This document shows positions 6,488 through 27,039 of a stretch of DNA of 64,000 bases, piece after piece; positions within the stretch are counted from its first letter, which is position 1; every line of letters begins with the position of its first letter. The stretch is taken from positions 29,574,001-29,638,000 of the forward strand of contig OZ024740.1 of the NCBI GenBank assembly GCA_964016885.1. Reading direction: 5' to 3'. A model generated the notes under the pieces. The model saw only the letters and a program-made list of their open reading frames with translations, made no database searches and had not been told where the DNA came from. A program made the translations under genes and the position numbers. Origin of the DNA: Eledone cirrhosa. Lineage: Eukaryota.

Positions 6488-7292
6488 CTCGGGAGGACTT
6501 TCCGGCTATGGATAACTTCCAGAGGTCTCTGGCCTGGCAGTGCTGCCGAGGAGCTCTACCAGTTCGAGACAAAATCTTCAGACATGGACGCCCTGGCAGA
6601 GATCTTGCCAAAAGGACCTGTCCAAGATGCGAGCAGGACACTGAAATCGTTCTGTACGCAATTGTTAAATGCCCAGGTGTGACCGACCTGTGGAATTATG
6701 TCGAACAGCTACTGTCACGTGTGGGACGCATCCAGTTGTCAGCCGAGTCCATCATGAGGATCACCCCGCCGCCTTCATTTAAGAACGAAGGAGCGGCGGT
6801 TTTCCTCTGTCTGGTTGCTATGGCGAAAGAGGTAATATGGTGGACGAGGTTAAAAGGGCTGAGGACAAACACCTTCCTCTCCGGACAACAACTTATACCC
6901 TTCTTTAAGTACCACTTCTGAAGGAAGGTGAGAGTGGAGAGAGAGGTGCTACACCTCAGTAAATTCGCTGAAAGGTGGGTGAATGTGGCGAAAATGGCCC
7001 AAGTGAATGGGCCTTCTCTGTATATAAACCTGTAGGTTGAGGAAGATAAACACATGGAAGACAGGAACACCTACTAAACGTGTTCCTGGTGTTGAGGGTT
7101 GTTCTATCCACGGGTGTAAAACAACCCTGCAGTAACGTGTGTGCCCCCCCCCCCTATTGGGGACTTCAATTGTTATTTTATTATATATAGTTTATTGTTA
7201 TTTATTAATGTTAAAGTTATTTTTATGTAAAACCCCCGCCGTCACCTCTTGTAATGTCCCACTTGTGTACGCCCCTGTGGCAAATAAAAAAA
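6488..7292 (+). mobile_element. Tx1/L1-clade LINE copy 1, 5'-truncated (ORF2 C-terminus plus 3' UTR)
   Basis: MDNFQRSLAWQC...CPRC...KEVIWWTRLKGLR is homologous to the intact ORF2. Premature TGA at 6919, native stop at 7035. Ends gtggcaaataaaaaaa, then (TATC)n. Confidence 0.9.
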
Positions 7293-7611
7293 TATATCTA
7301 TCTACCTCTCTCTCTATCAACCTATCTATCTATCTCTCTCCATCTATCTATCTATCTATCTATCTATCTATCTATCTCTCTCATCTAGCTGTCGTCTGTT
7401 CTACAGTGTGGATGTCATTCACTTCGCACAGAAGTTTTGTTCAAATTTATTGAGGAAATTTTGTGAGTTCAAACTTAATTTTGATACAATTGTGTAGCTT
7501 GACCCTCCGTCTGAACTGTCAGGCGGTGGGTCAGCTCATCTTTACCCCTCCTAGAGGTGAAAAACCTGTTTTAAAAAATTTTGTGTAAAAAATTTCAATC
7601 GTCTAACAGAA

Positions 7612-9492
7612 ATGTTAAACGCAGCGAACGAAAATAGTGGTGGGGGGACAGCGGTAAGAGTTGTAAGCTCGCACGCTTTAGTCCTCCCTTCCTTCCCAAC
7701 TAACGTCATAGAGAAGGAAGGAAAAATGAAAATAAAAACGGACGAATCTGCGGAGGAAAAAAAATTAAATGACGAAAACAACGAAAAAAAAAAATTTGAA
7801 AAATTGCATGACAATACTAATAACACAAACAAAGACACAACAAACAAAAAAATAACAGTTGAAAATAACATAATATCAGAAAACAAAGCAGACGACAAGA
7901 TTTCTTTTGCACAGAAAACAAAGAAATCTTTGACTTATATAGCGGAAAACATTTCAGATGTGGTACGAAGGATCACGGACGCAAAACAATACATAAGTGA
8001 AGGTGAGAATGGTATTTTATTGGTAAAAATGCCTCAAGAATTCACGAAAGACATTGAAAGCCGAACGGTCAAGTTTCGGACCATCAACAACAGTACAAAA
8101 AAACCTGAACAGCCTTCTCAAGCAGATATCAAAACAGTACTCGCAGAAGTACTGAATGAAACAACTTTCATAAGAAAAGACAGACTGTATGGAAGCCTAG
8201 CAATTATCATGAAGAACGAATCGGCGGCAAAAAAATGTGCTTTGTCACCGATTCGTTCGAAAAATTTCACCTTTTATCCATCTTATATGGGGAAAAAAAC
8301 TCAACGCATATGGCTGGATGCAATGATGCCAGATGTGGACTACTGCTGGCTCATAGCTGGCTTCATCGATCCAGTGAATGACAACGTGATTTCCATTGGG
8401 AAAACCACAGGCAATGCGTTCAGTGGAACAGGTATAGAGCTGGTAGTACAAATGAAGCCTGAACGCATCGCCCAAATACCCGACAGAATCCTATTAGAGG
8501 ACCACGGGTATATAAACATTAGCGTGGAGGGGAGAAGGCCGTCCTGCCATATCTGTGCAGGCAGAGGGCACCTGAAGGCCGCTTGTCCCCAACTCAACAA
8601 AAAGAAAACCCTGCTACCAACACCAGCTCCACCACCACCACCACAACAGATAAACAAACAACAAAACTCAGTCCCACCCAACCCGTCCCTCAGTAACACC
8701 ACAACACCACCACAACACAAACAGTCACAACACATTACCCCAAAACAAAATACAGGCCCACCCAACCTCTCACTCAATAAAACAACACAACCACCGCAGA
8801 CACAACACACAACACAGTCTAACATAGTGACATCCATCTCCCCCACAAAGAAAACCAACACGGAAACATTACCAGCAAACATACCTCTTCCCTCCAACAC
8901 TGAAGATAACCCAACGAATTCGGAGGAAGAAACGGAGTCCTTCAGACAGATTAAAAGGAAAAAAAGAAAACATCTGCAAAACACACAAGGACAAACAACC
9001 CCCACCCAAATCGCAACACAATCTAACAAAACAGAAAACACCCCTCCAGCAACAAACAAAACCAAACCTGCCCCTCCCCTCTTCGAAACACTCACACCAT
9101 CGGAAAAAAAGACATTACACTATACTTACATCAACAGAAACAATAATAAATTAAATGAACTCATATACAATAATCCTTCGGTACAAACCGAAGGTGTAAA
9201 CTTTGTTTCATCAGAAAACCACCCACATTTAAAACTAATAAAAATCCCAATGAACCTCTACCAAAAACTAAAAAAGGATTTTAAGGAGGACGTAGGACCA
9301 CCCTCTGTCAAACCCATAAACCGCGTCCTACTAAAAAGCTTTCCCCCTCCCCTTCCCCTCCCCAACACAACTCCAAACACCCCAACCCCACCACACACCG
9401 ACGACCCCACACCACCACAAGACACCCCTTCACCCAACACCCCCGACCCCATGGAAGTCGTGCAACCCGAACCCCGGGAAGCGGAAAGGTAG
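7612..9492 (+). CDS. LINE ORF1 protein (626 aa) with a CCHC zinc knuckle and a Pro/Thr/Gln-rich tail
   Basis: CHICAGRGHLKAAC (Cx2Cx4Hx4C) at 8545-8586; lies directly upstream of ORF2; homologous to the degenerate ORF1 at 16358-18282. Confidence 0.9.
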   Translation: MLNAANENSGGGTAVRVVSSHALVLPSFPTNVIEKEGKMKIKTDESAEEKKLNDENNEKKKFEKLHDNTNNTNKDTTNKKITVENNIISENKADDKISFAQKTKKSLTYIAENISDVVRRITDAKQYISEGENGILLVKMPQEFTKDIESRTVKFRTINNSTKKPEQPSQADIKTVLAEVLNETTFIRKDRLYGSLAIIMKNESAAKKCALSPIRSKNFTFYPSYMGKKTQRIWLDAMMPDVDYCWLIAGFIDPVNDNVISIGKTTGNAFSGTGIELVVQMKPERIAQIPDRILLEDHGYINISVEGRRPSCHICAGRGHLKAACPQLNKKKTLLPTPAPPPPPQQINKQQNSVPPNPSLSNTTTPPQHKQSQHITPKQNTGPPNLSLNKTTQPPQTQHTTQSNIVTSISPTKKTNTETLPANIPLPSNTEDNPTNSEEETESFRQIKRKKRKHLQNTQGQTTPTQIATQSNKTENTPPATNKTKPAPPLFETLTPSEKKTLHYTYINRNNNKLNELIYNNPSVQTEGVNFVSSENHPHLKLIKIPMNLYQKLKKDFKEDVGPPSVKPINRVLLKSFPPPLPLPNTTPNTPTPPHTDDPTPPQDTPSPNTPDPMEVVQPEPREAER

Positions 9493-26000: not shown

Positions 26001-26432
26001 ATATGGTGGACACGCTTGAAAGGGCTGAGGTCGGACACCTTTCTCTCCGGCCAACAACTGGTCCTTTTCTTTAAATGCCATTTTAAGAGAAGGATCACAA
26101 TGGAGAGAGAGGTGCTCTACCCCAGCAAGTTTTATGAAAGGTGGGTGAAAGTAGCGAGAATGGCCCGTGTGAATGGGCCTTCTCTCTTTATCAGCCTGTA
26201 GGTGGAAAGGTGGAAGTGCAAAGGAGCACCCCCTCTCTCTATTCTCCTAAGAAAAGGGTTTCACACTTTTTCGGGGGTGTGGGTAACCCCCGAAACGCCT
26301 CCTCCCTATTGAGGACTGTATTGTTAATTTTATACTTGTTATTTGTTTTTTACTCGTTCCTTTATGTAAACTCCCCCCCCCCCTTGTATTTGTCCCTTTC
26401 TTGTGTGCCCTCGTGGCAAATAAATAGAAACT
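23006..26432 (+). mobile_element. Tx1/L1-clade LINE copy 5, 5'-truncated within APE, with 19-bp TSD
   Basis: ORF2 homology from HLGLATQTVH to the stop at 26201, with several stops and frameshifts. TSD tatctattttcgttttctc at 22987-23005 and 26433-26451. Confidence 0.93.
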
Positions 26433-27039
26433 TATCTATTTTCGTTTTCTCGTTTCATCATCATTTCTTCTTCCACTTTCTTTCCATTTTCATTTTCTTG
26501 CCAATCATCCTCTCTCTCTCTCTCTCTTTCTCTCTCTCTCCCTCTCCCTCTCTACATCTCCCTCCCTCTCTATATCTCCCTCTCTATATCTCCCTCTCTC
26601 TATCTCTCCCTCTCTCTATATCTCTCCCTCCCTATATATATCTCATTGTTAATATATTCTCACTACGATATTCTATTAAGCCAGTCGTCTTCCTTATTTC
26701 ACCTCTCTCCACCTCTCTGCACACCCTCCCCCCCCCCATACTAACTCTATCACTTCCAGCTGAAATAACTGAAACAATTAACAAAACTCTCCAATTCTCC
26801 AACTATTTCTTTATTGCTTCGGTTATCTCTCTTGAGAAATGTTCTCTTTTTCTGAAATTGCTTTAGTCTTGCTTTTACAGAGAGAGAGGAAAGAAAGAGA
26901 GATAGAGATAGAAAGGGAGAGGGGGTAGAAAAAAGAGTGGAACACACACACACACACACATATATATATAGGGAGAAAGAGAGCGGGGGAATTGAAAAGT
27001 TAGAGAACGTGTTTATGCTGGTGAGGAAGTAATTACAGT

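Follow-up and report, generated by a model that had tools for sequence, protein, structure and literature searches.

Five long interspersed nuclear element (LINE) copies, designated A, B, C, E and F, lie head-to-tail in a 64,000 nt stretch of the Eledone cirrhosa genome (assembly GCA_964016885.1, contig OZ024740.1, positions 29,574,001 to 29,638,000 of the forward strand; hereafter the window), and belong to a lineage that inserts at the word TATCT. They are best explained as five separate insertions by nuclease-led, TATCT-specific target-primed reverse transcription, with short pairing between RNA and primer and a stagger of about 19 nt, and we put the probability of this whole picture at roughly 0.82. 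The elements have two open reading frames (ORFs) with an APE endonuclease and a reverse transcriptase (RT), and their junctions display a fixed polarity, duplications that begin at TATCT, no poly(A), no added TATC units at unique sites, and clustering; several subfamilies of differing age use the same word. The original prediction, made from the letters of the window, had proposed a (TATC)n target. TATC-type targeting was borne out genome-wide, but the word recognised is TATCT and not (TATC)n as such, given that copy C lies in (TATCTC)n arrays and some copies elsewhere occupy single TATCT sites.

The LINE cluster in the window

The copies and their junctions are as follows.

6489..7294, + strand: copy A, 5'-truncated LINE fragment with the end of ORF2 and the 3' untranslated region (UTR)
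7295..7382, + strand: TATC-type tract 3' of copy A, containing the left duplication of copy B (7361-7379)
7383..13180, + strand: copy B, young full-length LINE, 5.8 kb
7361-7379 (left) and 13181..13199 (right), + strand: target-site duplication of copy B, 19 nt
16034..16314, + strand: (TATCTC)n-type array to the left of copy C
16315..20374, + strand: copy C, long, broken and rearranged LINE copy
20375..21080, + strand: (TATCTC)n-type array separating copies C and E
21081..22834, + strand: copy E, degenerate and 5'-truncated
23006..26432, + strand: copy F, 5'-truncated, with ORF2 broken by stops and frameshifts
22987-23005 (left) and 26433-26451 (right), + strand: target-site duplication of copy F, an exact and unique 19 nt with TATCT at its start

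Comparison of the window with its longest copy identified all five as co-oriented pieces of one LINE lineage. Their 3' ends, counting two subfamily-specific letters after GAAA, were at 7294, 13180, 20374, 22834 and 26432, all on the + strand as predicted, and each was directly followed by TATCT with no poly(A); the 3'-end motif is degenerate in the fourth copy. Four of the five 5' junctions (B, C, E and F) adjoin TATC or TATCTC repeats, the exception being copy A at 6489, whose 5' junction lies away from TATC. Target-site duplications were looked for in copies A and E, and none was found. Pairwise identity was 72.3–81.2% in the common 3' part and 79.3–82.4% in the middle part. Because the copies are just 72–82% alike, tandem duplication was rejected as the source of the cluster, in agreement with the earlier claim of independent insertions. 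Conserved structure in the 3' UTR was also looked for and had no support (z -1.34).

TATCT at 3' junctions across the genome

The genome (3.0 Gb) was searched with the last 300 nt of copies B, F, E and A, giving 986, 3466, 3226 and 2450 candidates at first look. Forty per search were scored, and 39 junctions of B and 29 each of F, E and A were examined, excluding the copies of the window itself. This collection, which had been suggested as a check, revealed two or three letters followed by TATCT on the sense strand at 114 of 126 3' junctions (B 39/39, A 26/29, F 25/29, E 24/29). Among 200,000 random points drawn from a 400 kb sample of the genome, 0.49% had TATCT starting at position 2-4 past the point. 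Each subfamily is marked by the two letters that come after GAAA, which are predominantly TC for B, CT for F, GA for A, and TA or TC for E. The preference for a TATC period reaches 20 nt and beyond into the flank. Pure TC contexts were found at only 3/126 junctions, and (TA)n receives few insertions, with 922 (TA)6+ tracts against 20 (TATC)3+ tracts in an unbiased sample of 600 kb from 60 evenly chosen genome places. None of the inspected junctions showed poly(A), and AATAAA lies just 6–10 nt upstream of the element end.

Strand specificity had been claimed from the window, which by itself is no proof because the TC (18 vs 0) and TAC (52 vs 0) tracts there are also all on the + strand. The genome-wide junctions supply what the window could not: the reverse word AGATA occurred within the first 12 nt of the flank at 1/126 junctions, and insertion at TATCT is strand-specific.

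Tiny insertions consisting of only the last 10–25 nt of the element were also seen in TATC tracts, in the 3' flanks of loci L004, L013, L027, L132 and L170, those of L132 being in tandem.

Target-site duplications

Long stretches were analysed for 38 B copies and L014, and the start of the 3' flank of B copies was found to reappear at the 5' junction. Under a strict count (exact, 14–26 nt, at least 3 departures from the repeat), unique duplications were present in 11/39 B copies against 1/1482 mismatched pairs, and in 10/17 of those that were testable, that is, in which the first 20 letters of the flank are different enough from the repeat; most of the remaining copies lie in pure repeat and hence could not be scored. 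The strict count replaced a looser one, which gave 23/38 informative duplications of 15–24 nt, and one of 49, under a weak control that 165/1406 mismatched pairs passed. Loci L046 and L048, which have no 5' anchor, were excluded from the looser count and included in the strict one.

The duplications begin at TATCT and extend into unique host sequence, also for truncated copies. Single-site targets with full duplications were found at L052, L058, L039 and L314. The clearest is L052, where a B copy sits at a lone TATCT within an antisense relative, with a 16 nt duplication and zero added repeat. In L033 and L314, host and element have different letters at the two positions preceding TATCT, which places the insertion boundary at or just inside TATCT. 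At the off-target loci L313 and L304 the duplications begin with TATAT, and TATCT is neither present nor added.

The alternative that had been named in advance as decisive, that TATC is a 3' tail encoded by the element and added at insertion, so that the microsatellites are products and not targets, was checked here and did not hold. It would explain why TATC stands behind nearly all 3' ends and why 5/14 (TATC)3+ tracts in the 600 kb sample adjoin a copy of the lineage. However, the 5' junction, even of truncated copies, repeats the string that begins with TATCT and reads on into unique sequence, single-site targets have gained zero extra units, and off-target copies lack TATCT. The unique duplications refute such a tail for subfamilies A, B and F, whereas in the ATT families (see later) a tail may contribute, and we consider it the least probable of all the explanations weighed here. 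The course of the duplications, from TATCT into unique sequence, and the lack of TATCT at off-target sites show TATC to be the target and not a tail.

ORFs and class assignment

Copy B carries both ORFs, each of them intact.

7612..9492, + strand: ORF1, 626 aa, one CCHC knuckle (residues 312-325)
9526..12963, + strand: ORF2, 1145 aa, APE endonuclease, RT (YADD at 686) and C-terminal CCHC

The lineage of copy B is an APE-type retrotransposon without long terminal repeats (LTRs), i.e., a non-LTR retrotransposon, of the L1 group. ORF2 matched the Pfam families Exo_endo_phos, RVT_1 and zf-RVT, and no RNase H family in the Pfam scan. Its best solved relative is human L1 ORF2p (PDB 8sxt and others; E 1.5e-50, residues 8-855), R2-type proteins being far weaker (E 2e-20), and proteins bearing RNase H (P0070, P0131-P0133) branch apart from the lineage in a protein tree that was built in a quick version only. 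ORF1 had no match in Pfam; its look-alikes in the protein atlas are zf-CCHC/RRM and ZCCHC3-like clusters (scores 0.90–0.92). Protein relatives at 38–45% identity occur in other organisms. The marks of target-primed reverse transcription are present, namely 5' truncation, duplications of variable length and no LTRs; across the genome 12/39 B copies are truncated or interrupted and 27 are full length.

Membership of the Tx1 clade is likely, as judged from features rather than from a tree with named Tx1 families. Protein-database searches returned no curated Tx1 sequences, the sole entry named TX1 being a fungal protein (P0025) on a long branch. A CCHC knuckle in ORF1 is a feature of the Tx1 clade, and the knuckle found here fits it, the feature not being unique to Tx1. 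Sequence preference for the target is common in the clade (PMC4494074; this and the other papers are cited from the available part of their text), and the preference seen here also fits, 114/126 junctions being well over the 20% used as a criterion in that paper.

Sister families in (ATT)n

More distant relatives that end in ATT repeats were met in random genome regions, and searches with two of them defined sister families G and H. Their junctions lie in (ATT)n in 28/29 cases for G and 26/29 for H (54/58 together), with TATCT at none, and ATT precedes 19/19 element heads found in 40 long G/H loci. A 3' tail may contribute to the ATT at their ends. In an unrooted DNA tree, built after leaving out four older copies whose alignments were short, G and H group together on a single supported branch. 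Family G has intact ORF2s that are 66–67% identical to that of B. Since these sister families use (ATT)n in the same genome, the lineage has changed its target at least once. The nuclease domain is 58–61% identical between TATC and ATT families and the RT 74–75%, and 44 fixed APE positions separate B and C from G. A putative DNA-reading hairpin was taken as the stretch between the W-T-W and SYLDR motifs, equated by alignment with the betaB6-betaB5 loop of L1 (PMC1950540).

Other repeats share these surroundings. A SINE-like (short interspersed nuclear element-like) repeat occurs at 13355-13475 of the window and in the flanks of L239, L242, L244, L249, L275 and L289, often behind ATT runs; its 3' end, purine-rich and then ATT repeats, resembles the ends of ATT-type LINEs, making it a candidate non-autonomous partner of G and H. 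A repeat head of unassigned type also often trails the ATT runs of G and H (3' flanks of L204, L210, L216, L217, L219, L220, L227, L231, L232 and L247), so that ATT tracts are common to at least one further element. Additional relatives have (TAG)n-rich or TC/TG sequence past the 3' end (L168:5606 region, L039:5200-5584), and are possibly extra target families.

Proposed mechanism and its main rival

The proposed course of insertion begins with the APE nuclease, which would nick the AGATA-bearing strand, so that integration takes place just before TATCT with about 15–24 nt of the site duplicated. The first nick would fall on the bottom strand within 5'-AGAT(A), its position being fixed only to within one base, as the first T hardly varies. 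The transcript would run a few bases past its AATAAA signal into target-derived sequence, and these read-through bases may pair briefly with the nicked end, which would account for exact 3' ends without poly(A); a loose analogy is the annealing of RNA and target in SART1Bm and R1Bm (PMC7265360). A second nick about 19 nt downstream would create the duplication. Later copies would then land next to earlier ones in the same direction, because TATCT, an asymmetric word, stands on either side of a copy once the site is duplicated. The switch between TATC and ATT would most likely have come about through changes in the nuclease surface.

The main rival, which is compatible with the targeting itself, assigns the choice of target to RNA-DNA pairing: a loosely specific nuclease would nick widely, and only those nicks that pair with the read-through tail of the transcript, derived from the flank of the donor copy, would be extended. 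The lack of poly(A) at inspected junctions agrees with this, as does the small difference in the hairpin loop between TATC and ATT families. Polyadenylation cleavage falls some distance downstream of AATAAA, and because that signal is only 6–10 nt before the element end, transcript cleavage would fall in target-derived sequence. Target-like RNA annealing also raises accuracy in SART1Bm (PMC7265360). However, off-target insertions retain just TAT or T of the word, so the pairing can be very short. The TATC-period preference extending at least 20 nt into the flank also speaks against pairing, though repeat targets alone would yield it, and the greater divergence of APE than of RT, with its 44 fixed differences, leaves ample room for a protein-based change. 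We regard target choice by pairing as unlikely, though not negligibly so. More doubtful still is partial inheritance of the target through RNA, in which each transcript would bring along a few bases from the duplicated site of its own copy and select the next site with them. If true, a single founder that landed in another repeat could give rise to a family with a new target, as for TATC and ATT, with the hairpin little changed, and the sister families, being young and intact, would offer a natural experiment on the gain and switching of specificity in APE retrotransposons.

Several observations weigh against nuclease-led insertion at TATCT. The junction sets were not sampled at random but consist of the top-scoring matches of each search, and at least one pair of loci among them (L121/L122) is a duplicate. 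Twelve of the 126 junctions are without TATCT, in TC, TA-rich or ATC contexts, and among five TATC-type ends in the unbiased sample one has no TATC flank and another a degenerate flank. Seven testable B copies are without an exact duplication, one of which (L033) matches with one mismatch, and among 20 older A, E and F loci, chosen partly as off-target, a clear duplication was present in only about five. For G and H, a unique duplication was sought in the long loci and none was found, so that ATT as their target rests on its presence at both flanks. TATC and ATT families hardly differ in the putative hairpin, the variation within TATC families equalling that between them and G, and a simple nuclease-loop explanation is therefore not favoured. 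Finally, the proposed nicks and read-through are deduced from junctions.

Arrays, age and abundance

Another copy of the lineage was found within 1.49 kb downstream of 32/117 junctions, 30 of these being co-oriented; in a control, 12/240 tiles held any copy. For 13/39 B copies, a further 3' end of the lineage lies at most 200 nt upstream, and at L033 a young B copy occupies TATCT directly behind an older A-type 3' end. The clustering, the co-orientation and the arrangement at L033 support growth of arrays by re-use of targets regenerated by the duplications, as had been envisaged.

Tandem full-length young copies with identical 5' ends are also present (G000:C1:348917508-348929495; C2:169405239-169411368; C3:304874250-304880461), one triplet being at an exact spacing of 5835 nt, and these may have originated by recombination. 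They could be taken to favour a passive origin, proposed for Drosophila Waldo (PMC3812793), in which elements have little insertion preference and survive, or multiply by unequal recombination, in microsatellite-rich regions of low cost. This is very unlikely for the present lineage, given the base-exact register and polarity in 39/39 near-identical young copies across many chromosomes, the near absence of insertions in far commoner repeats, and the divergence of the copies in the window.

The best 40 matches for each end of B were about 100% identical, and the family is young, since 24/27 full-length B copies keep ORF2 open. Older subfamilies are 91–94% alike to the window copies. TATC-type copies make up 2.87% and ATT-type relatives 2.12% of the 600 kb sample. 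Near-identical sequence occurs in sequencing runs labelled as other organisms (shares 0.21–0.50 for five); four such runs were examined, and contigs in two span the 3' end and the first 10 flank letters. Related species, or contamination, may account for this. No RNA data set was among those listed with such sequence, which carries no information about expression.

Relation to known systems

Microsatellite targeting by Tx1 families, which the original prediction took as established, is indeed already known: Kibi in (TC)n and Koshi in (TTC)n of fishes, and crocodilian Tx1 elements in (TTCC)n/(TTTC)n (PMC4494074, PMC3812793). These share with the Eledone lineage an APE-type LINE, microsatellite-specific insertion and relatives with different repeat targets. 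They differ in the target itself, as neither TATCT/(TATC)n nor the (ATT)n of the sister families is given for Tx1 in the available text of those papers. The Kibi/Koshi lineage is recognised by insertion in (TC)n or (TTC)n, and pure TC was found here at only 3/126 junctions; the likeness to Kibi and Koshi is one of working mode. Octopus vulgaris has 80 annotated L1-Tx1 families, 13 of them recently active, with no target preference given and zero occurrences of the word 'target' in the available text (PMC13282606); these may be relatives of the Eledone lineage, likened by description rather than by sequence. The Tx1L element of Xenopus laevis is likewise a sequence-specific APE LINE, whose nuclease nicks its own target (PMC1950540); nicking by the nuclease is here predicted from junctions. 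The Tx1L target is a unique site in the transposon Tx1D, unlike the microsatellite target here (PMC1950540).

Human L1 ORF2p has the same combination of APE and RT, but L1 ends in poly(A) and is loosely specific for TTTT/AA, in contrast to the TATCT target and lack of poly(A) in this lineage. The ORF1 of L1 is not known to carry a CCHC knuckle, unlike ORF1 here. Among other microsatellite-targeting non-LTR elements, Dong belongs to the R4 clade, and Waldo and Mino to R1. Their targets are (TAA)n for Dong, (ACAY)n for Waldo and (AC)n for Mino, and that of the NeSL-related Togen is (TG)n (PMC3812793, PMC4640811). Dong thus uses the same repeat as families G and H; all four elements are in other clades than the present lineage, against whose ORF2 R2-type proteins score far lower, as noted above.

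No prior report of a LINE targeting TATC or GATA was found in the literature searched; Repbase, Dfam, Kojima and Fujiwara 2004, and the supplement of PMC4494074 may hold one. Only the TATC target and the target switch between sister families look new. How APE-type LINEs pick microsatellite targets has been described as poorly understood (PMC3812793), and specificity was not conferred on L1 by grafting only the hairpin loop (PMC1950540). Domain-swap and RNA-swap tests should be simple in this system because one genome contains two groups of relatives, both intact and recently active, that use different repeats and have ORF2s 66% identical. The lineage also helps to shape GATA/TATC microsatellites, which are a common class of markers, and interrupts them, since its TATC-type and ATT-type members cover about 2.9% and 2.1% of the sample and 5/14 TATC tracts adjoin a copy.

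Copy C and neighbouring repeats

In copy C, 120 nt of its 5' junction recur in inverted form at 18577-18696, a fold-back lies at 20281-20322, and about 1.7 kb has been lost internally ahead of the final 50 nt. The inverted duplicate and the fold-back palindrome at the internal deletion are suggestive of template switching. Compared with an intact relative in L173, the 5' half of copy C is 76% and its middle 93% alike, and it may be a mosaic. Copy E begins near the break in copy C, and the two were considered as halves of one interrupted element; this was rejected because C has its own 3' end (92% to the L173 subfamily) and overlapping stretches differ.

The TAC, TC and TATC tracts of the window are nearly all on the + strand. 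Long (ACT/TAC)n arrays flank the region on both sides (4637-6470 and 29021-29729). Half of the window, from 31236 to 64000, is occupied by a 45 bp satellite that has about 729 copies at 85% matches and forms higher-order repeats, and the LINE cluster lies in the microsatellite-rich margin adjoining it.

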